DNA of 64,000 nt from Vicinamibacterales bacterium (GCA_965207665.1 CBDBMV010000002.1:3527335-3591334), one strand, 5' to 3'. Positions 1 to 28,599 are shown, numbered from the stretch's first letter. The notes: generated by a model from the letters alone, not told the origin. Program-made: numbers and translations.

Positions 1-2
1 GT

Positions 3-317
3 TACGCCCCGGTGGGCTGGCTGACAACCTGGACCCATGCCGACCTCCGGTTCCAGAGACTGGCCGTTAGCGACCGGTCGTACATTGTTGCCAACCAGAC
101 GTCGGTGGAAGCCTTGCGGGGTGTCTGGTTGAGAGTATCGCCGCAAGTGCGATGGACAGACAACGACCCTCGGGGAGAAGTGCGCCGCATGGTGTACGGG
201 CTGGACTTCTACCCGCGGACCCACTGGCACGTGAATCTCTCCTACTACCGGGACCACCACCGATTCGGTGACCTGCACACGCAGACTCTTCTGGCGCAGT
301 TGCACCTTTATCTGTAG
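3..317 (+). CDS. C-terminal part of a probable outer-membrane beta-barrel protein (5' end outside window)
   Basis: Frame open from the window start; alternating aromatic/hydrophobic beta-strand pattern ending in ...LLAQLHLYL (beta-signal-like). Confidence 0.6.
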   Translation, partial: YAPVGWLTTWTHADLRFQRLAVSDRSYIVANQTSVEALRGVWLRVSPQVRWTDNDPRGEVRRMVYGLDFYPRTHWHVNLSYYRDHHRFGDLHTQTLLAQLHLYL

Positions 318-381
318 GGCGGGCCGCCCGAGCGGAAGCCGTCAAGAAAGGCTTTCGTCTTTCGGGCTCGGCAGCCGCGGC

Positions 382-459
382 GACCGAGGGGGAGGGCGGT
401 TGGTCCGATTGCCGGCCGCGGGGTAGCCCGGTCGCCCGGCGGTCCAGCATTACAGCGCC
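382..459 (+). repeat. 78-bp perfect inverted repeat, left copy (partner 6286-6363)
   Basis: gaccgagggggagggcggttggtcc...ccagcattacagcgcc is the exact reverse complement of 6286-6363; extends to 369-459 / 6286-6376 with 2 mismatches. Confidence 0.97.
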
Positions 460-603
460 TGGCAGGATAGATACTTCTTCCGCAGTCCCCGTAGCGATTA
501 CCCCCGAGAAACAAGGGTGCACCTCGCAGCACCTCTCCGGTCCCCCCATCCCGCCCGACATTCCGATGCGGATTCGGCACTTGAGACGTGGACGATGGGG
601 AGG

Positions 604-635
604 CGATTCTGCGAGCGCGAGCGCTCGCAGAATCG
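604..635. terminator. 15-bp perfect hairpin downstream of the integrase
   Basis: cgattctgcgagcgc-ga-gcgctcgcagaatcg, about 40 nt past the integrase stop; no U-tract. Confidence 0.5.
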
Positions 636-673
636 AGCCGGCCTCGCGGCGGTTCTTGGAAGCGTCATGACCA

Positions 674-1891
674 TCACAGCGGGAGCGACTGCGCCTGGCC
701 GCCCTCCAGGTAGGCCGCCCACTCGTTCATGAGCCGGCGCCTCCGCTCGAACAGGTCCGACCGCGCATACGCCGCCTCGGTCCGGTTCGTCACCACGTGC
801 GCCAGGGCCGATTCGATCACCGCGCGCGGGTAGCTGGTCGTCTCCGCCGCCCAGTCGCGGAAGCTCGAGCGGAAGCCGTGCGGCACGCCGGCGACCTTGT
901 GGTTCTTCAGCAGTCGGGAAAGTCGCGTCACGCCGATCGGCCTGCCGCCCTGGCCGGGAAACACCAGTGGGCTGCTGCCATGGTCGAGCGCCCGCGCCGC
1001 ATCGAGGATCTGCACCGCGCGCCTCGAGAGCGGCACCCGGTGCTCGCGCAGCGCCTTCGTGCGCACAGGCGGAATCGTCCATACGCGGGAGGCCAGGTCG
1101 ACCTCCTCCCACCGCGCGCCGCGCACCTCGCCCGAGCGGGTGGCCGTCAGCACCAGAAACTCGAAGGCCAGCTTCACGGCCGGCGAGGCGCCCGAGGCCG
1201 ATATCGTCCGGATCGCCTCGGCCACTTCGGAGTGGTGCAGCGCCGGCATGTGCCGCACCAGGTCCTTCTGCGGTCCGAGGACCGGTCCGATGCGGTCGCA
1301 CGGGTTGTCGGCCCTCAGCTGCATGGCCACGGCCCACTCCATCACCGCGCTGACCCGCTGGCGCAGCCGCCGCGCGGTCTCGGGCCGGATGTGCCAGACC
1401 CTCCGCAGCGCGTCGAGCACGTCGGCGCTGGTGACCTCTGACACCGCCATGCGGCCGATGCGCGGGAAGGTCCAGCGCTCGAGGCTCGCCAGCCATTCTC
1501 TGGAGTGCCGGTCGTTGCGCCAGCCGAGATGCTTGTCGGCCCACACCCGCTCGGCGGCCTCGGCGAAGGTCGGCATGCCGTTGGCGCGGCGACGGTCGGC
1601 CAGGGGGTCGCCGCCGGCGCGGGCGGCCTTGCGGTTCGAGAATGCCTGCGCACGGGCTTCGTTGAGCGAGACGAGCGGGAAGCCCCCGAGTCCGAGCTCG
1701 CGGCGGCGGCCGCGGATGACGAGGCGCTGGACCCAGCTTCGTGCGCCGGAGGGCTTGACCTGCAGGTAGAGCGCATTGCCGTCGCTGTAGCGCCCGGCGC
1801 CGGCGACGTTGCGGGCGAAGGTGGTAGAGAGCGCGTCGACGGGATGCCGGCCCTTGGGCTTGCGCTTGTCAGGGGGGTTCCGGCGCGCCAC
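674..1891 (-). CDS. P4-like tyrosine recombinase/integrase with N-terminal arm-binding domain
   Basis: N-terminal GRYSDGNALYLQV...ELGLGGFPLVSLNEAR arm-binding signature; catalytic residues intact: LTATRSGEVR, TKA, HGFRSSFRDW, LAH, AYARSD; GAGGAG upstream of GTG. Confidence 0.95.
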   Translation of the reverse strand: MARRNPPDKRKPKGRHPVDALSTTFARNVAGAGRYSDGNALYLQVKPSGARSWVQRLVIRGRRRELGLGGFPLVSLNEARAQAFSNRKAARAGGDPLADRRRANGMPTFAEAAERVWADKHLGWRNDRHSREWLASLERWTFPRIGRMAVSEVTSADVLDALRRVWHIRPETARRLRQRVSAVMEWAVAMQLRADNPCDRIGPVLGPQKDLVRHMPALHHSEVAEAIRTISASGASPAVKLAFEFLVLTATRSGEVRGARWEEVDLASRVWTIPPVRTKALREHRVPLSRRAVQILDAARALDHGSSPLVFPGQGGRPIGVTRLSRLLKNHKVAGVPHGFRSSFRDWAAETTSYPRAVIESALAHVVTNRTEAAYARSDLFERRRRLMNEWAAYLEGGQAQSLPL

Positions 1892-2306
1892 GCGGTGTCG
1901 ATCTCCTCACGGTTGACTGCGACGCGGACCATCTCACGGTCCTTCCAGGCCCTCTCCGAGGCGATTGCCGCCGACTCGGCCGGCCGCAGACCACGCAGCA
2001 CGGACGAGCGGGGCGGGAAACCGGGGCTTTGTCAGCGGCGGAGAGTCTGTCCGATGGCCGCTGCCGGGGGGAAGTGTGATCCGTCACGCGCCGGCGCCGG
2101 CGGTAGGCGCGTTGACGGTCGCGGTGGTCGAGACGACCTTCGAGGCTGCGCTGGTGGCGTGCCCGGGCGGCGCGGACGGACCGCGTCCGGCTGACCGCGC
2201 GGCACCACTCCGAGCAGTAGGCGTGGCCGCGGTCGCACGACGCGCAGATGGCGAAGGGTTGGCGGCACTCGCGGCAGGTCCGCTGGCGGAGGGGCGGCGG
2301 GTCCAC
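1869..2306 (-). CDS. Cys/Arg-rich putative zinc-binding protein resembling IS21-associated accessory ORFs
   Basis: CREC...CASCDRGHAYCSEWC...GRLDHRDRQRAYR...CVVCGR pattern; 3' end overlaps the integrase start. Family link is from memory. Confidence 0.7.
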   Translation of the reverse strand: MDPPPLRQRTCRECRQPFAICASCDRGHAYCSEWCRAVSRTRSVRAARARHQRSLEGRLDHRDRQRAYRRRRRVTDHTSPRQRPSDRLSAADKAPVSRPARPCCVVCGRPSRRQSPRRGPGRTVRWSASQSTVRRSTPRGAPEPP

Positions 2307-2406
2307 GACATCGGAGCGCGCAGGGCAAGCTCCGACTGGACAACGAGCCGCGGCCGTGTCACAAAGGGACCGGCTGTCTCGGACTGTCGGAGCTCGAGGC
2401 GGTCAC

Positions 2407-2435
2407 GAGGGTCTGGTGGGTAAGACCAGACCCTC
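2407..2435. repeat. 11-bp stem hairpin upstream of the Cys-rich ORF
   Basis: gagggtctggt-gggtaag-accagaccctc. Confidence 0.6.
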
Positions 2436-2597
2436 ACCCCACGACTGAGTCCGATTTCCAAGCTATCCGAATGCGTCGCCGCTGGCCACAGTGGGTCTCG
2501 ACGCCGGCACCCCTTCAGCACCCTGCTCGACGACGTGTGCGCGGAGAGGCGCCGGGCTACCTCATTCGATCCGCCATTCGGAGAAAAAGAAACTCAG

Positions 2598-2626
2598 AAG
2601 TGTGCAGTTTTCAGTTGCCACTGGCA
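2598..2626 (-). mobile_element. Probable solitary IS21-family terminal inverted repeat
   Basis: Minus strand reads TGCCAGTGGCAACTGAAAACTGCACACTT: a TG terminus plus an A-rich motif resembling IS21-family ends. No istA/istB or partner end seen. Confidence 0.5.
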
Positions 2627-2916
2627 TGCGGCTGATGACCGGCGGCCGAGGCCAACTGGCAGATCGCCCGGAAGACACGCTGGCGGCGGGTGCAGACCGT
2701 CCACTGCCCGGTGGGGCTGCGCCGGTACCGCCAGGATCCGCGCGGCCGCCGCGGTTTGCCGTTGGGCGTGACAGGCGCCTGCACGTATACCGAGTTCCGG
2801 GGGGCGAGCTCGTAGCGGTCTTCTCCGATTCCCCGGCCCGACGCGCTCTGGACGACCCGGACGCAGGGAAACCGTTCCTTTACCTCGGCGCGCAGCAGCT
2901 CGAGATGTTGCCGTGA
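2626..2916 (+). pseudogene. Possible 3' fragment of a gene cut by the IS-like end
   Basis: Protein-like C-terminus (RLHVYRVPGGELVAVFSDS...PFLYLGAQQLEMLP) starting at the IS-like terminus; no RBS. Confidence 0.3.
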
Positions 2917-2963
2917 AGTCAATCCGTCCATGCCAGCAATGCGCCGAACCCGAGTTACGCCGC

Positions 2964-3004
2964 AAAAAGTAAAGGGACGCAGCGCATCGGCGCTGCGTCC
3001 CTTT
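2964..3004 (-). terminator. Rho-independent terminator of the surface-protein pair
   Basis: aaagggacgcagcgc-atcg-gcgctgcgtcccttt stem; minus strand continues TTTACTTTTT. Confidence 0.85.
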
Positions 3005-3041
3005 CCGAATGCCGTTCCCCCTGCACCCGTTGTCAGTGAAG

Positions 3042-4640
3042 CTACTGCCGGCGCCGCCGATACAGCCGCGCGCCGCCTGCCGTCAGGAGCAATGCCAGAA
3101 TCAACTGGCCGACCAGTGGCAGCACGGGAACCGCGGTGGAGCCGACCACGGTCACCGTTATCGAACGCGGGTCGCCGATGTTCGCGCCGCTGGCATCCGT
3201 GATGGTCACCGTGGCCGTCTTCTCCTCGCCATCTTCGAGTGACTCATCCCCAAGGGCCCTGATCGTCAGCTCGGCATTGGCGCTGCCGCCGAACTCCACC
3301 GAGCCTCCCGAGATCGCGCTGCCGTTCTGTTCCAGCGAGATGCGGGCACCGCCGCTCACCGACACCGTTGCCGAACCTACTTGACTACCCTGATCGGTGT
3401 CCGCGAGGAGGTGGACCGTTTCGCTGCCGCCCTCGTCGATGCTGACGCTCGCCTTCGAGAACGTGACAGTCGGCGTCTCCTCGCCGCTCAGGAGCCTGAC
3501 GGTGGCCGGATCCGCATCTTCTATGGCCCCGCCGTCACCACGTTTCTGCGCTTCGGTTCTCCCTTCCATCAGCGTGAACGTTATCTCCTCGTCCCTGAAC
3601 CCGGACACGTCTATCGCCTTGATAGTCAGATCGATACCGTCGTCGGTACCCGCTGCCGCGGCGACCGCGCCGGTTGCCGCGCCGCCCGTTGCGCTTGTAT
3701 CGATCCCGATAGTGCCGACAATGTACCTGCCCTCGCGGTCGGTCTCGAGGTCCGTCGCTGGTGCCTCATCAATCATGGTGGCGTCTCTGTAGATCTTGAT
3801 AAGGCTGCCAACGGCCTCGGGCGGGGAGATGGAAAGCAGGAGCTCGTCACTGCTACCACCGCGATCAGTTCCTTCACCATCAAGGCTAGTTAGCTTGCCC
3901 CGGATACCAGTTCTTGCGCTGCTGGTGCCACTGATGTTCACACTGACCGTCATGGTCTGCATGTTTCCCTCGGCCAGTTGGATGCTGGACGGAGCGAACG
4001 CGAGCTTCGGCGCCGGGTCGTCATCCGCGATCGTCAGCGTCCGTTTCTGCGGCGTCGCCGTATATGTATTCCCGTCAGCACCCGCAAAGTTCGCGTTCAA
4101 TTCCAGAGTCAGAACTACCGTCTCTTCGTTCCAGTCGTTCTCGTCACGCATGTCCGTAACGAGCAGTTCGATCGTCCTCTCTATGTCAGCGCCAGTACCC
4201 GTCGGGCCATCTGTAGCTGCAAAATCGAACGTGGCTGAGGCTGCGAGCAACTCAGTTGACGCCCCCTTTTCTCGAACGCGAATGTCACAGTCGTCACCGT
4301 CTGCGCTCGCCACGCCGTTGCAGGTAGCTGTGATTTTGAGGGTGGGTTTGTTGACGTTGTTGAAAACAGGGCGCCTGACATCGGGGGTCGCAGCGTTGTT
4401 ATCGTGATCAGTCAAATAGGTTGGATCTGACCGCGATATAGTTAGCGTAACTCTATCCGGCGTGGCGTTGGAGTCATTAGCGCCCTCTTCCAGCGTGCCT
4501 GAAGACGCTCCCATTGTCAGTGTGAAGCGCGTCGGCGTCTGCGCCCACGCCGTCCCGGAGGACGCACCCAGGAGCACAGCCACGGCCAGGGCTGTGAGCA
4601 GGTAGCCCCGTCGCACAAAGGTTGATCTCGCTACGTTCAT
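3042..4640 (-). CDS. Secreted surface protein A, Calx-beta/Ig-like repeats, IPTL-CTERM-like C-terminal sorting tail
   Basis: Start moved to ATG 4640 (AAAGGAG RBS). Signal peptide ending TAWA-Q; acidic Thr/Gly-rich beta repeats (TIADDD, VTFSKASVSIDEG); tail VPVLPLVGQLILALLLTAGGARLYRRRRQ. Confidence 0.85.
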   Translation of the reverse strand: MNVARSTFVRRGYLLTALAVAVLLGASSGTAWAQTPTRFTLTMGASSGTLEEGANDSNATPDRVTLTISRSDPTYLTDHDNNAATPDVRRPVFNNVNKPTLKITATCNGVASADGDDCDIRVREKGASTELLAASATFDFAATDGPTGTGADIERTIELLVTDMRDENDWNEETVVLTLELNANFAGADGNTYTATPQKRTLTIADDDPAPKLAFAPSSIQLAEGNMQTMTVSVNISGTSSARTGIRGKLTSLDGEGTDRGGSSDELLLSISPPEAVGSLIKIYRDATMIDEAPATDLETDREGRYIVGTIGIDTSATGGAATGAVAAAAGTDDGIDLTIKAIDVSGFRDEEITFTLMEGRTEAQKRGDGGAIEDADPATVRLLSGEETPTVTFSKASVSIDEGGSETVHLLADTDQGSQVGSATVSVSGGARISLEQNGSAISGGSVEFGGSANAELTIRALGDESLEDGEEKTATVTITDASGANIGDPRSITVTVVGSTAVPVLPLVGQLILALLLTAGGARLYRRRRQ

Positions 4641-4705
4641 GACTGTCGCTCCTTTGGAGACTTGCGCTGGATGCGGCCGGAAGCCGGCGGACTCCAGATA
4701 CATTT

Positions 4706-4745
4706 AAGGGGAGCACCCGGCGCGTTCGCGCCGGGTGCTCCCCTT
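4706..4745. terminator. 19-bp perfect hairpin between the two surface-protein genes
   Basis: aaggggagcacccggcgcg-tt-cgcgccgggtgctcccctt; weak U-tract on the minus strand, so may be leaky or mRNA-stabilising. Confidence 0.7.
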
Positions 4746-4784
4746 CTAATCAACCGTTCCCCCCTAGCGCCGTGGACGATGAAA

Positions 4785-6206
4785 CTATCCGCGATGCCGG
4801 CGATACAGCCGCGAGCCGCCGGCCATCAGGAACAGAGCCAGGAGAAGCTGCCCGACGAGCGGCAGCGCCGGAACCGCAGTGGAACCCTCCACTGTGACGG
4901 TCAGCCAGTAGGCATCCTGATCTACGTTGGCGCCGTCTGCCTCCATGATCTTCCAGGTCTTGGACTTCATTTCGCCGTCCATCAGCTCGGGATCGCTCAT
5001 GGACATGGCCGTCAGTCGCGCGCTGTTGGTGTTTCCGAGGTCGACCATGACGTAGCCGTCCATCTCCTCCAGCATCTCGCCGTCCTGGTAGAGACCAACC
5101 ATGGCGGCACCCTCGACCGAGAGCTTCACCATTTCTACCTCCGCGCCGAACTGCCCTGAAGCGAGCAGAGTCGACGTTACGGAGCCACCTTCCATGACGC
5201 TCACGTCGGTCGGCGAGAACGAAACGGTCGGCTTAGGCTCGTTGCTGAGGACATTGATCATGGCCATCCCGCTACTGATGCCGCCACCAGCGGTTGCCTG
5301 GCCACCGGGCGATCTCCCATCCGTCAGCGTGAGATTGATCACGGGATCCTGGAATCCGGCCCTGTCGGAATTCGCCTCGATACTCAGGACGATACTCTCC
5401 GCAGGACTAGTACCAGCGACGGCAGTGTTGATGTCTCCGATGTTGTACCGACCCCTGGCGTCGGGAGTCGGGAGCGCAGCAAGAGCACCACCCGACGGCC
5501 CGAACATAATGGAAATGGGTCCATTCGTCGCGACCGCGTTTGCAGGATCCACGGACAGCATGATGGCACCACCAGCAGCAAGGGCGTTCAACGCCGTCTC
5601 CAGGGCACCTTCACCAGGCGATCCTGCCGGGCCGACACCCACCGTCACGTTGACCGTCGTGGTGCTGGTTTCAGTCAAATCGATAGTGGTCCTGTCGAAC
5701 CTGAGTTCAGGCGTCGGCTCGTTGTCATCGATCATGATGGTGACTTGAGCGGGATCGGGAACCACTCCCGGCTCGGTCGTGCGCAACGTCAGGACCAACT
5801 CCTCATCATCCCAATCCGCTTGGTCTTGGGGAATGACGATAGTCAGCGTTATTTCGTTCACACCGGGCGTGAAGGTAAGGTTGGCGGGCGAGGCGCCAAG
5901 CGCTCCAGCGGGACCATTAATCACCAAACCGGCGTAAGCCCCTCCGTTATGTTGGACGGTGAGTTCACCAGCCGCCTCAAAAGCGTTTGGATTGGTACGA
6001 GTAACCGTCCGACTCACGGTCACCTGCACGGGGGGTATCCCGGTGCCAGTTTCGCCGGCACCCTCCATCGCCATGATGGTGGTGTCACCCACGAACCCGA
6101 CGGTTTGCGCCGACGCCGTCCCTGGGGATGCCGCCAGCAGCACAGCCGCGGCAAGGGCAGTGAGCAGATAGCCCCTCCGCATGAAAGTTGTTCTCGCTCC
6201 GTTCAT
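4785..6206 (-). CDS. Secreted surface protein B, paralog of 3042-4640
   Basis: Same signal peptide (RRGYLLTALA...TASA-Q) and tail VPALPLVGQLLLALFLMAGGSRLYRRHRG; same AAAGGAGCGACAGTCATGAACG leader. Confidence 0.88.
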   Translation of the reverse strand: MNGARTTFMRRGYLLTALAAAVLLAASPGTASAQTVGFVGDTTIMAMEGAGETGTGIPPVQVTVSRTVTRTNPNAFEAAGELTVQHNGGAYAGLVINGPAGALGASPANLTFTPGVNEITLTIVIPQDQADWDDEELVLTLRTTEPGVVPDPAQVTIMIDDNEPTPELRFDRTTIDLTETSTTTVNVTVGVGPAGSPGEGALETALNALAAGGAIMLSVDPANAVATNGPISIMFGPSGGALAALPTPDARGRYNIGDINTAVAGTSPAESIVLSIEANSDRAGFQDPVINLTLTDGRSPGGQATAGGGISSGMAMINVLSNEPKPTVSFSPTDVSVMEGGSVTSTLLASGQFGAEVEMVKLSVEGAAMVGLYQDGEMLEEMDGYVMVDLGNTNSARLTAMSMSDPELMDGEMKSKTWKIMEADGANVDQDAYWLTVTVEGSTAVPALPLVGQLLLALFLMAGGSRLYRRHRG

Positions 6207-6285
6207 GACTGTCGCTCCTTTGAGACTAGGGGGTAACGGTTACGTTCTCTACATCCCCTGCCTCTCGGGCTGAACCGCCTTGAAC

Positions 6286-6363
6286 GGCGCTGTAATGCTG
6301 GACCGCCGGGCGACCGGGCTACCCCGCGGCCGGCAATCGGACCAACCGCCCTCCCCCTCGGTC
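6286..6363 (-). repeat. 78-bp perfect inverted repeat, right copy (partner 382-459)
   Basis: Exact reverse complement of 382-459; lies 80 nt upstream of the surface protein B start codon. Confidence 0.97.
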
Positions 6364-6482
6364 CCGGCGGCTGCCGGGTCGACGACGATGGTCTCCTCTT
6401 CGCTGGACGTGTTGGCGCGCTAACTGACACACTAACGAGCGGACTCTTGCGGCAGATCTTGAAAGCCGGGAGGTAGGGGGCG

Positions 6483-8492
6483 GTGTCCATCCAACTTGGT
6501 CGTCTTGTCGCGGGAATCTGCCTTGTCCTGGCCGTCGGATTCGGCGCTGTACCGCCTGCTGCGGCGCAGCCAGGCACCTCCGGAGGGGAGTGGCGGTACT
6601 ACGGCGGCGATCTGGCGAGCACCAAGTACTCGCCGCTGGATCAGATCGACCGGGACAACGTCGATCAACTCGATATCGCCTGGCGGTGGCGAACGGACAA
6701 CTTCGGGCCGCGGCTGGATTTCTACTTCCAGGCGACGCCGCTGATGGTCGGCGGCGTGCTGTACACCACGGCGGGATGGAGCCGCAACGTGGTGGCCATC
6801 GATGCCGCCACCGGCGAGACGCTGTGGATGTACCGCCTGGACGAGGGGGAACGCGGCAGCCGGGCGCCGATTCGCGCGGCAGCCGGCCGGGGCGTGGCGT
6901 ACTGGAGCGACGGACAGGGTGACGATCGCATCATTCACGTCACCAGAGGCTACCGCCTCGTCGCGCTGGACGCGGCCACGGGACTGCCCGTGAGCGCGTT
7001 CGGCGACGACGGCATGGTGGACCTCTACGAGAACCTCAACACCGGCCTGGACCGCCCGCCGATCGAGCCTGGCCAGATCGGCGTGAACTCGCCGGCCACG
7101 ATCGTCGGCGACGTGATCGTCGTCGGTGCGGCGCTGCGCGCCACCGCGCCCGCGCCCGAGTTCCCGGCCGGCTTCGTCCGCGGGTTCGACGCGCGCACCG
7201 GCGAGCAGTTGTGGATCTTTCACACGATCCCGCAGCCCGGCGAGTTCGGGAACGACACCTGGGAGAACGACTCCTGGCGCTACTCCGGCAACACGGGCGT
7301 CTGGGCGCCGATGTCGGCGGACGAGGAGCTGGGCTACGTCTACCTGCCCGTCGAGACCCCGACGAACGACCTCTACGGCGGCCACCGCCCCGGCGACAAC
7401 CTGTTCGCGGAGAGCCTGGTCTGTCTCGACGCGAAGACGGGCGAGCGGGTCTGGCACTTCCAGTTCGTGCACCACGGCGTCTGGGACTACGACACGCCGA
7501 CCGCGCCGACGCTGCTCGACATCACGGTGGGCGGCCGGCGCATCAAGGCGGTCGCGCAGGTGACCAAGCAGGCCTTCACCTACGTCTTCGACCGCGTCAC
7601 CGGCGAGCCGGTGTGGCCGATCGAGGAACGCCCCGTTCCCCAATCCAACGTGCCCGGCGAGCAGACGGCGCCGACGCAGCCATTTCCGACACGGCCCGCG
7701 CCTTTCGACCGGCAGGGCGTCTCGGGCGACGACCTGCTCGACTTCACCGCGGAGCTGAACGCCGAAGCGCGGAGGATCGCGTCGGAGTACCGGATGGGTC
7801 CGCTCTACACCCCGCCGATCCTGGCGGGCGACGGCGGCCTGCGGGCGCTGCTGATGCTGCCGCACATGACCGGCGGGGCCAACTGGCAGGGCGGGGCCGT
7901 GGACCCGGAGACCGGCATCCTGTACGTGGCCTCGGTGACGAACCCGACGGTTGCCGGACTGGCCAGCAACCCCACCGTCTCGACGATGGACTACGTGATG
8001 GGACGGGGCCAGCGCCGACGCGGCCCGGCCGCATTGGAGCAGCCGCAGGGCTGCGGCGAGATCGGTCCGCTGGGACTCCCGCTGATCAAGCCGCCCTGGG
8101 GGCGGATCACGGCGATCGATCTGAACACCGGCGATCACCTCTGGATGGTGCCGAACGGCGATACGCCCGACTGCGTGAAGGACCATCCGGCGCTCAGCGG
8201 TGTCGAGATACCCAGGACCGGGAAACCCGAGCGCAGCGGCATCCTGGTCACCAGGACGCTGATGTTCGCCGGCGAAGGCGCGGGCGTCTTCGCCACGCCC
8301 ACATGGGCGGGAGGACCGATGTTCTACGCCTACGACAAGCGAACGGGCGACATCGTCTGGGAATTCGAGCTGCCCAAGAACCAGAGCGGCATTCCCATGA
8401 CCTACATGGTCGACGGTCGCCAATATATCGCCATGGCGGTCAGCGCTCGCGGTGAGCCGGCCGAGCTGGTGGCGCTTGCGTTACCGAGGTAA
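6483..8492 (+). CDS. PQQ-dependent dehydrogenase (quinoprotein glucose dehydrogenase-like), secreted
   Basis: Signal peptide; WRYYGGD...YSPLDQI, ATPLMVGG, WHFQFVHHGVWDYD, KPPWGRITAIDL, PMTYMVDGRQYI motifs. Confidence 0.92.
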   Translation: MSIQLGRLVAGICLVLAVGFGAVPPAAAQPGTSGGEWRYYGGDLASTKYSPLDQIDRDNVDQLDIAWRWRTDNFGPRLDFYFQATPLMVGGVLYTTAGWSRNVVAIDAATGETLWMYRLDEGERGSRAPIRAAAGRGVAYWSDGQGDDRIIHVTRGYRLVALDAATGLPVSAFGDDGMVDLYENLNTGLDRPPIEPGQIGVNSPATIVGDVIVVGAALRATAPAPEFPAGFVRGFDARTGEQLWIFHTIPQPGEFGNDTWENDSWRYSGNTGVWAPMSADEELGYVYLPVETPTNDLYGGHRPGDNLFAESLVCLDAKTGERVWHFQFVHHGVWDYDTPTAPTLLDITVGGRRIKAVAQVTKQAFTYVFDRVTGEPVWPIEERPVPQSNVPGEQTAPTQPFPTRPAPFDRQGVSGDDLLDFTAELNAEARRIASEYRMGPLYTPPILAGDGGLRALLMLPHMTGGANWQGGAVDPETGILYVASVTNPTVAGLASNPTVSTMDYVMGRGQRRRGPAALEQPQGCGEIGPLGLPLIKPPWGRITAIDLNTGDHLWMVPNGDTPDCVKDHPALSGVEIPRTGKPERSGILVTRTLMFAGEGAGVFATPTWAGGPMFYAYDKRTGDIVWEFELPKNQSGIPMTYMVDGRQYIAMAVSARGEPAELVALALPR

Positions 8493-28184: not shown

Positions 28185-28599
28185 ATTCCGCCGCAGCGCG
28201 GCCATAAGCCGAATTCTGTGCCGGCGCGCCGCGGTTGCCCGCGAACGCGCCGGTGACGACCATTCCTCTAGCCCCGCCGTCTCCGGCGGGATCAAGCGAC
28301 CTACCCGGAAGCTTCGGGCGGACCACCCTCAAGCGCTCCCCTATTTGGTCTTGCTCCGTGCGGGGTTTAGCCTGCCACCCGCCTTGCAGCGGGCGCGGTG
28401 CGCTCTTACCGCACCTTTTCACCCTTACCTGCCCCGCCCATGCGGGCGCGGCCGGCGGTATGTTTTCTGTGCCACTTTCCTTCAGGTCACCCTGACCGGG
28501 CGTTACCCGGCGCACTGCCCTCTGGAGTTCGGACTTTCCTCCCCGCGCCCGCGCCGGGGCGCGTGCGCGCGGCGGTCGTCCGGCCGGCTGCGGCGGAAT
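28185..28599 (-). ncRNA. rnpB: RNase P RNA (type A)
   Basis: Minus strand contains GAGGAAAGTCCGAACTCC, GGAAAGTGGCACAGAAAA, GGGTGAAAAGGTGCGGTAAGAGCGCACC, ACAGAATTCGGCTTA; ends pair as a P1 helix. Confidence 0.97.

Follow-up and report, generated by a model that had tools for sequence, protein, structure and literature searches.

The DNA analysed here is a window of 64,000 nucleotides from a Vicinamibacterales bacterium (GCA_965207665.1 CBDBMV010000002.1:3527335-3591334), and the subject of this work is a segment near its left end, positions 369-6376, in which a tyrosine integrase gene and two genes for surface proteins are enclosed by a long inverted repeat. An initial annotation had proposed that this segment is an invertible switch for the surface proteins, an interpretation that our analysis supports in part. 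The anatomy of the locus was reconstructed from open reading frames (ORFs), third-position GC content (GC3), and scans against the Pfam, NCBIfam, and PHROGs families.

The arms of the inverted repeat occupy positions 369-459 (left) and 6286-6376 (right), and they form the only inverted pair given by the repeat search: 91 nt long, 98% complementary, and separated by 5826 nt. The two mismatches fall at arm positions 11 and 13 (window 379 and 381), which leaves 78 nt, 382-459 against 6286-6363, in perfect agreement. In the genome to which the window belongs (G000; 4,293,067 bases in 2 contigs, or 4.29 Mb), BLAST placed the 91-mer at exactly two positions, namely the two arms; therefore, the repeat is neither a chance match nor a generic dispersed repeat. 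In 60 other genomes of the family, nothing matched over the length of the arm; the matches there covered 23-51 nt with E-values of at least 3.4e-4. An exact 22-mer from the arm had no match in metagenome contigs and two in genome contigs, one in the orthologous contig of the sister genome G001 and the other, of 24 nt and attributable to chance, in a Pirellulaceae metagenome-assembled genome. The genome BLAST, the 60-genome comparison, and the 22-mer searches thus rule out a generic repeat, which the initial annotation had named as one way in which its proposal could fail. In G001, the inner 67 nt of the right arm are present at 87% identity in the same place, and a single arm copy is assembled. 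Logan contigs from the sequencing runs X20, X21, and X1 end 30 nt within the arms, at 430 on one side and at 6334 or 6347 on the other, as is expected at a k-mer length of 31 (k=31) for a true collapsed repeat, and hence the repeat is not an assembly artefact.

The integrase gene (674-1891, minus strand) encodes 405 residues and is apparently intact. Its product matches Arm-DNA-bind_3 (PF13356, 61 bits), Phage_int_M (PF22022, 88.4 bits), and Phage_integrase (PF00589, 52.9 bits), each with a cut-off of ~27 bits, as well as the integrase group phrog_1 (5e-57); the match to NCBIfam NF007246 (158 bits) lies under the cut-off of that family. Matches in the PDB, which include the entry 3jtz, the arm domain of a CP4-like integrase (E 6e-8), cover the N-terminal and central domains only. 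Judged from its arm-binding, central, and catalytic domains, all of which score above their cut-offs, the protein is assigned to the P4/CP4-57 type. The stretches TRSGE, HGFRSSFRDW, and AAYARSD were picked out of the translation by eye as candidates for the catalytic R...HxxR...Y series. There are 13 full-length paralogues of this integrase in G000, the window's own included. Divergent pairs of such paralogues were seen at 7 of 22 loci scanned (L017, L018, and L030-L049), namely L030, L032, L033, L034, L035, L039, and L044 in the genomes G012, G003, G001, and G022; the starts of the paired genes are 131-176 nt apart, and one member is 52-66% and the other 66-79% identical to the window integrase. 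Two small ORFs on the minus strand, which belong to no Pfam, NCBIfam, or PHROGs family, lie between the integrase and the surface-protein genes: ORF Y (1869-2306), of up to 145 residues, Cys- and Arg-rich, and supported by its GC3 frame, and ORF X (2611-2931), of 106 residues. Both are kept in the sister islands described below, where ORF Y again adjoins the integrase (86% amino acid identity in the paralogous island) and ORF X is 81% identical. On the other side of the integrase, past its stop codon, a perfect palindrome (603-637, with the self reverse match at 604-635) that is kept in G001 possibly serves as a terminator or a binding site.

The two surface-protein genes form an operon on the minus strand, and their presence together with the three-domain integrase bears out the gene content given in the initial annotation. 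Surface protein 1 (4785-6206) has 473 residues, whereas the ORF of surface protein 2 (3042-4703) has 553 residues, with a likely true start at Met22, near 4640, according to its alignment with protein 1. The proteins are paralogues with 35% identity overall; each begins with a signal peptide, and these signal peptides and the last ~45 residues are nearly identical, both proteins having a hydrophobic, Arg-rich C-terminal tail. Weak matches below the respective cut-offs were obtained to Calx-beta for protein 1 (21.7 bits) and to the sorting signal NF033207 for protein 2 (24.8 bits, cut-off 45), and an ESM Atlas search with protein 1 gave no usable match. Exosortase (PF09721) has 0 matches in G000, a genome that is 96.9% complete; because the exosortase is absent from the genome, the proteins are not called PEP-CTERM, and with the low NF033207 score this sorting route is ruled out. 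A hairpin of 15 pairs followed by a T run, resembling an intrinsic terminator (2971-3004, minus strand), stands directly after the second gene. At the starts of these genes (window 6088-6248 and 4537-4656), the identity between islands from different species is 90-96% over the first ~160 nt, which comprise the leader and the signal peptide, but ~35-60% over the protein bodies. Conserved ends around a variable middle are typical of diversified surface families. The G+C content of the cargo is 0.58-0.62, versus 0.68-0.73 for the integrase and the flanks.

The arms are not the boundary of the element. Upstream of the first surface gene lies an invariant 29-mer (6215-6243; GTAACCGTTACCCCCTAGTCTCAAAGGAG on the minus strand) that combines one half of a conserved recombination site with a ribosome-binding site. 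Among 104 genomes of the family, only four (G000, G001, G003, and G012) contain it, at 18 places in total and with an exact match at 17 of these; two further variants were seen when upstream contexts were printed. At 13 of these 18 places, the site is intact and reads ...GAAGAAGTA followed directly by ACCGTTACCCCC... (in its short form, GAAGAAGTA joined to ACCGTTACC). At the other five, which are the window, the paralogous island in G000, and the G001 contigs C10, C37, and C74, the sequence to the left of GTA is arm sequence, and the break between the two classes always falls between GTA and ACC. The missing half, ...GGAAGAAGTA, is located at the opposite end of the split islands, ~200 nt beyond the stop codon of the integrase gene, where the second arm comes next (7 of 7 printed junctions). 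In the window, this integrase-side half occupies 472-485 and reads ...GCGGAAGAAGTA on the minus strand, or TACTTCTTCCGCAG on the plus strand, with the core TAC at 472-474; the core of the surface-side half is TAC on the plus strand at 6241-6243. The two cores form the short direct repeat that marks the ends of the island, 12 and 42 nt inside the arms, from which they are separated by the left spacer (460-471) and the right spacer (6244-6285). The left spacer shows weak symmetry with part of the right one, and the last ~10 nt of the right spacer resemble the integrase-side half-site as an imperfect direct repeat, AGAA(C)GTA; on one strand, the core GTA with these partial flanks is found at 472-485 and 6241-6252.

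Since both half-sites lie on one strand and thus in direct orientation, the integrase is expected to integrate and excise the segment and not to invert it. The initial annotation had considered that this enzyme might act on the arms, a role that falls instead to the conserved cores as the likely sites; its own caveat, that a P4-type integrase integrates and excises while RecA may act on the 78-nt homology, fits the data best. The gene order of the split island (472-6243) is a circular permutation of the intact order of integrase, site, and surface genes, which is the pattern expected after integration of a circle carrying an intact site. Derivation of the split arrangement from the intact one by inversion was rejected on paper, as it would make the integrase and the surface genes divergent and they are co-directional. 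At three loci, termed T-class, the intact site supplies the final codons, including the stop, of an S-adenosylmethionine (AdoMet) decarboxylase-like gene (PF02675, 54.6 bits); a site at the 3' end of a host gene is typical of attB and of P4-type island attachment. At G000:C2:4056807-4057310 (minus strand), as in L032 and L036, the stop TAG of the decarboxylase-like gene lies within the conserved site, and a surface-gene array begins 19 nt after the gene with no integrase nearby; the island family may have its primary attachment site at the end of this gene. In related intact loci, an AlpA gene (PF05930, 68.1 bits) is found between the integrase and the site, and one cassette array was found joined to three upstream partners: an integrase end, the AdoMet-decarboxylase gene, and an arm. 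The MEGAHIT contig C60 of G001, orthologous to the window, has its last base exactly at the TAC core of the integrase-side half-site, which fits an assembly-graph branch or population heterogeneity at the crossover point; this is only a hint and could be coincidence.

The same architecture recurs at G000:C2:1591832-1599417, where an arm, ~215 nt, an integrase, Y, X, three surface genes, ~50 nt, and an arm follow each other; the arms of this paralogous island are 332 nt long and share 91% identity, and their sequence is unrelated to that of the window's arms. In G001, at least five islands or island ends show the same geometry with a third arm family (75-91% alike). Two of these sister islands could be compared with unoccupied sites. 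At the place of the paralogous island, the SGL-like gene and uvrA are 3-63 nt apart in G001, G003, and G012, with neither island nor arm; in turn, G000 has an empty site without arms at the place of the G001 island on C10, of which both flanks are assembled. As arms and island are jointly missing in both testable cases (2 of 2), they constitute one insert. Every split island seen carries long inverted arms. No target-site duplication was found at the outer arm ends of the two islands with empty sites, and the Pfam, NCBIfam, and PHROGs scans showed no transposase gene in the island; a composite transposon or one of the type of miniature inverted-repeat transposable elements (MITEs) was rejected on these two grounds.

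The left flank of the window's island is the 3' end (3-317, plus strand) of a 385-residue ORF that starts 840 nt before the window, has a signal peptide and high in-frame GC3, is convergent with the integrase, and belongs to no family in Pfam, NCBIfam, or PHROGs. On the right, 106 nt beyond the arm, a gene for a pyrroloquinoline quinone (PQQ)-dependent dehydrogenase (6483-8492, plus strand; PF01011, 672.5 bits) is divergent from the surface operon. A tRNA-Lys(CTT) gene lies 2 kb to the left of the window. The interval between this tRNA gene and the dehydrogenase gene is a variable spot: it measures ~95 nt in G003, ~0.8 kb in G012, and 8.4 kb here, and the comparison of G003 with the window means that ~8.4 kb were added here. 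The empty-site evidence for the window's own island comes from distant relatives only, through the spacing of the two genes in G003. A search of positions -2200 to 6600 showed no repeat of the 3' end of tRNA-Lys, and attachment of the island to this tRNA in the usual manner was therefore rejected. The 2.35 kb from the tRNA gene to the left arm (window -1983 to 368; L019 10017-12368) contain a lipoprotein-like ORF, a YceI-like ORF (PF04264, 44.9 bits), and the 385-residue ORF, and this stretch has no DNA match in G001, G003, or G012.

The arms themselves vary widely between sister islands. Their lengths are 91, 332, and ~230-440 nt, and the three families are unrelated in sequence, sharing only the inner motif GG(A)GCAGGGG, whereas the integrases are 77-80% identical. 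In two families, dispersed modules make up the outer parts, and the inner parts are confined to islands: a dispersed MITE-like repeat, which has 45-nt terminal repeats of its own, forms the outer 258 nt in the arm of the paralogous island, and the outer parts of the G001 arms are multi-copy modules resembling repetitive extragenic palindromic (REP) sequences. Copies of the 258-nt repeat with 45-nt terminal inverted repeats were also observed at G000:C2:1197549-1201757, 1504954-1509996, and 1917487-1920681. Full copies are accompanied, 2-5 kb downstream, by a 40-50-nt direct copy of their own 3' end, with no integrase of this family in between, which is the pattern of islands attached at the 3' end of the repeat. 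Inverted repeats near the integrase paralogues of G005, G038, and G018 proved to be REP-like palindromic or dispersed sequences unrelated to the 91-mer, and they were not counted as support. When the flanks of the window's island are joined in silico, the resulting fold is a long hairpin (-159 kcal/mol versus -67 +/- 4 for shuffles) that carries the crossover close to its tip; given the repeat, this result is trivial. The arms may be either the halves of a palindromic, perhaps mobile, landing site or repeats borne by the element.

Sequence nearly identical to the locus is present in host-associated metagenomes, as revealed by a search of sequencing runs, and one of these runs contains a flipped junction. 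The initial annotation had predicted two alternative junctions in the case of inversion, and one of them was recovered from run X23 as a Logan contig of 677 nt (depth 10.8, 0 mismatches) that reads reverse 6286-6652 and then directly 460-769. This contig passes from the dehydrogenase flank through an arm with the two variant letters of the right arm into the 12-nt left spacer and the end of the integrase, with the exchange point within the 78-nt identity. Run X23 derives from sample S20, and runs X20 and X21 from a different sample of the same study, S19. The contigs of X20, X21, and X1 break at the arms and consequently give no information on orientation, while G001 has the orientation of the reference; given the flipped junction in X23 and the arrangement in G001, either orientation relative to the dehydrogenase gene is found in nature, and the presence of one orientation only, which would have spoken against the initial proposal, does not apply. 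A k=31 contig crosses the arm in X23, which means that the arm is not repeated in that assembly graph; the cover of the left flank in this run appears to stop near 320-325, as inferred from bin depths, so that only one arm, or a second one that has diverged, may be present in the X23 strain. The samples seem to harbour mixtures of several strains: at window 41 and 68, within the gene of the 385-residue protein, a pair of linked base variants differs in its share between X20 and X21, which come from one sample, and is absent in X23. The depth of the left flank in the Logan run coverage is 2-5 times that of the island.

A flip of the segment could matter for expression of the surface genes. The right arm begins 79 nt upstream of the ATG (6206) of the first surface gene. 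Only 38 nt separate the site core from this ATG, so that the operon would depend on upstream context; it is probably without a promoter of its own downstream of the site. A scan of positions 1-7000 found 0 sigma-70-like promoters against 0.7 expected from shuffles, although it does not cover promoter types of Acidobacteriota. Flipping would not alter the 170 nt that directly precede the surface gene, which comprise the leader, the spacer, and the arm; beyond them, it would replace the divergent intergenic region of the dehydrogenase gene by the tail of the gene for the 385-residue protein, with a possible effect on expression. Among the G001 islands of this type, three of four lie directly behind a co-directional gene and one lies beside a divergent gene; since both contexts are present there, either seems to be tolerated.

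We propose, with about even confidence, that the locus is an integrase island that has integrated and probably remains mobile, that has long inverted repeats at its termini, and that is able to flip by recombination between its arms. According to this proposal, a 5.8-kb integrative island at ~472-6243, composed of a P4/CP4-57-type integrase, two small ORFs, and a promoterless two-gene surface operon, would have entered by site-specific recombination at the conserved site, the halves of which would now form the imperfect direct repeat with core GTA at its ends. The integrase would be expected to excise and re-insert the island rather than to invert it. The 91-nt arms just outside the ends would be constant companions of split-type islands that arrive together with them, and recombination between the arms, most simply RecA-dependent, would flip the whole island; such recombination can take place because 78 nt are identical.

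A number of observations weigh against this proposal. The direct repeat at the island ends is short and imperfect, consisting of GTA and a few flanking bases, and at 13 of the 18 loci the chromosomal site is intact, a state for which a simple attP reading does not account. The joint of an excised circle, 472 to 6243, was not among the 15 joints listed of 59 in Logan contigs, which drop rare forms. The unoccupied palindrome GGAGCAGGGG...CCCCTGCTCC has 0 occurrences within 5-70 nt in G000 and 0 within 5-35 nt in G001, G003, G012, and G038. A candidate arm-type binding motif, TGGGGGGA, was dropped, as it is found in the 3' flank of only 2 of the 13 integrase genes of G000. The flipped junction is represented by one k=31 contig from one run in which the junction of the left flank with an arm seems to be uncovered, and the reciprocal junction, the other of the two predicted by the initial annotation, is absent among the pieces listed for X23. 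Finally, the proposal does not account for the long inverted arms of all split islands.

One alternative, in our view unlikely, is that the arms are a functionless relic without ongoing flipping: the second arm would have arisen once, together with one inversion, through MITE-like replicative transposition of an arm or another inverted duplication, and X23 would preserve the ancestral single-arm state. The unbranched passage of the X23 contig through the arm, which requires an unrepeated arm, would be accounted for in this way, as would the apparent stop of left-flank cover in that run and the single assembled arm copy at the orthologous locus of G001; the MITE-like and REP-like outer parts of the sister arms also point in this direction. 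However, one-off accidents do not explain long arms that recur at every split island in three unrelated sequences, the inner parts of the arms are not dispersed repeats, the outer arm ends lack target-site duplications, and arms and island are jointly missing from two empty sites.

A programmed invertible switch, as the initial annotation envisaged, is judged unlikely. The working sites would then be the arms, and inversion of the 5.9-kb segment by the enclosed integrase, or by a different recombinase, would be appreciably frequent within a population, moving the promoterless operon between the divergent promoter region of the dehydrogenase gene and read-through from the operon of the 385-residue gene. 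Such a switch is suggested by the long, near-perfect inverted repeat unique to the locus with a recombinase and surface genes inside it, by the flipped junction, by the dependence of the operon on its upstream context, and by the inner motif common to otherwise unrelated arm families; the arms of the window are, moreover, 98-100% alike, versus 87% between G000 and G001 at the same place, which would fit ongoing exchange. Against it stand the direct, not inverted, orientation of the conserved integrase-type sites and the dissimilarity of the arms in sequence and length among sister islands whose integrases are closely related. There is no homogenisation in the arms of the paralogous island (91% identical) or of the G001 island on C10 (75-87%), the orientations come from different samples with the contigs of three runs broken at the arms, and the 170 nt upstream of the operon are the same after a flip. 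An assembly artefact, in which one arm copy or one orientation is a mis-join, is very improbable: the assembly has 2 contigs and repeats invite such errors, but in three independent runs the contig breaks at the two arms are those that a true repeat dictates, G001 has the right arm in the same place, and a second island of G000 has the same architecture.

A further, tentative idea, which we regard as rather unlikely, is a cassette system for variable surface proteins in Vicinamibacteria, similar in logic to integrons or shufflons, in which arm-domain integrases would recombine an invariant ~45-nt site located 38 nt before promoterless operons. If so, operons with conserved signal-peptide and anchor ends and variable middles would be plugged in behind drivers of three kinds, namely an integrase gene, the gene for the AdoMet decarboxylase, or a palindromic landing pad; in the last case, the long inverted arms would allow an inserted array to flip, and two inverted intact sites elsewhere could swap arrays. 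A locus with two such sites was observed at G000:C2:3938300-3955485, where intact sites at 3940963 (plus) and 3952172 (minus) are inverted and 11.2 kb apart. Each site heads a surface-gene array, the arrays face each other, and two tandem integrase genes lie on either side; inverted repeats of 150 nt at 94%, 901 nt at 83%, and 398 nt at 81% identity connect the two arrays. This locus is a better candidate than that of the window for a site-specific inversion that swaps arrays. Elsewhere in the window, at 28189-28591 (minus strand), an ordinary bacterial RNase P RNA of class A (263 bits) was identified.

Acidobacteriota are an abundant phylum in which mobile elements and surface variation have received little study. 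The present clade stands out by three unusual features: small integrase islands with diversified surface proteins behind one invariant recombination site, a cassette array joined to three kinds of upstream partner, and long inverted repeats at every split insertion. If the arms are landing pads or ends borne by the element, they represent a new way of building a tyrosine-recombinase island, and if the choice of surface proteins produced depends on flipping or site exchange, the islands would constitute a mechanism of surface variation in these bacteria; otherwise, apart from its odd repeat, the locus is an integrated island of the ordinary kind. The listings of full-text literature searches contained no description of such an arrangement.

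Islands with P4/CP4-57-type integrases insert into the 3' ends of tRNA or protein genes, as exemplified by SGI1 at trmE and by the dusA-specific islands. The locus resembles them in the arm-binding, central, and catalytic domains of its integrase, in the AlpA-type gene beside the integrase in related loci, in the use of a host gene 3' end (AdoMet decarboxylase) as the site in some loci, in the short direct repeats at its ends, and in the empty sites of relatives. It differs from them in the lack of tRNA attachment, in the inverted repeats of 91-440 nt outside its ends, in the many copies per genome, and in the intact site between integrase and cargo at most loci; to our knowledge, P4-type islands do not show long inverted repeats. 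Invertible surface switches include the fim switch, the invertons of Bacteroides, cwpV of C. difficile, sap of Campylobacter fetus, and slp of Lactobacillus, and the site-specific ones have repeats of ~10-40 nt that usually flip a promoter. The likeness of our locus to these systems is in outline only: an inverted repeat bounds a segment with a tyrosine recombinase and surface genes, two orientations were observed, and the long homology could serve RecA as in C. fetus sap, whereas the repeats here are 78-91 nt long, whole genes and the recombinase flip, and the conserved sites of the recombinase are direct. With integrons, the locus shares a tyrosine recombinase beside one highly conserved site that is followed by promoterless genes in one orientation; in contrast to them, the recombinase is of the P4 type and not IntI (the NCBIfam XerA/integron-integrase match is 21.4 bits, versus a cut-off of 220) and is co-directional with the cassettes. 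No attC-like palindromic site was noticed between the two surface genes in the window repeat search, in which the repeated sequence (family D2) is the N-terminal coding region with 16 nt of leader.

Two further groups of elements come close in one respect each. Recombinase-in-trio (RIT) elements, strand-biased circularizing elements (SEs), and Tn554 are likewise mobile and inverted-repeat-bounded without a DDE transposase, with repeats of 13-19 bp in SEs and 34 bp in RITs and with two or three recombinases, unlike the one arm-domain integrase and the arms of 91-440 nt found here (PMC10214605). Transposon-like restriction-modification units were inserted as units with long imperfect inverted repeats against a clean empty site, as the present islands appear to be, yet they show short target duplications, of which none was seen here, and they have no integrase (PMC2853133).

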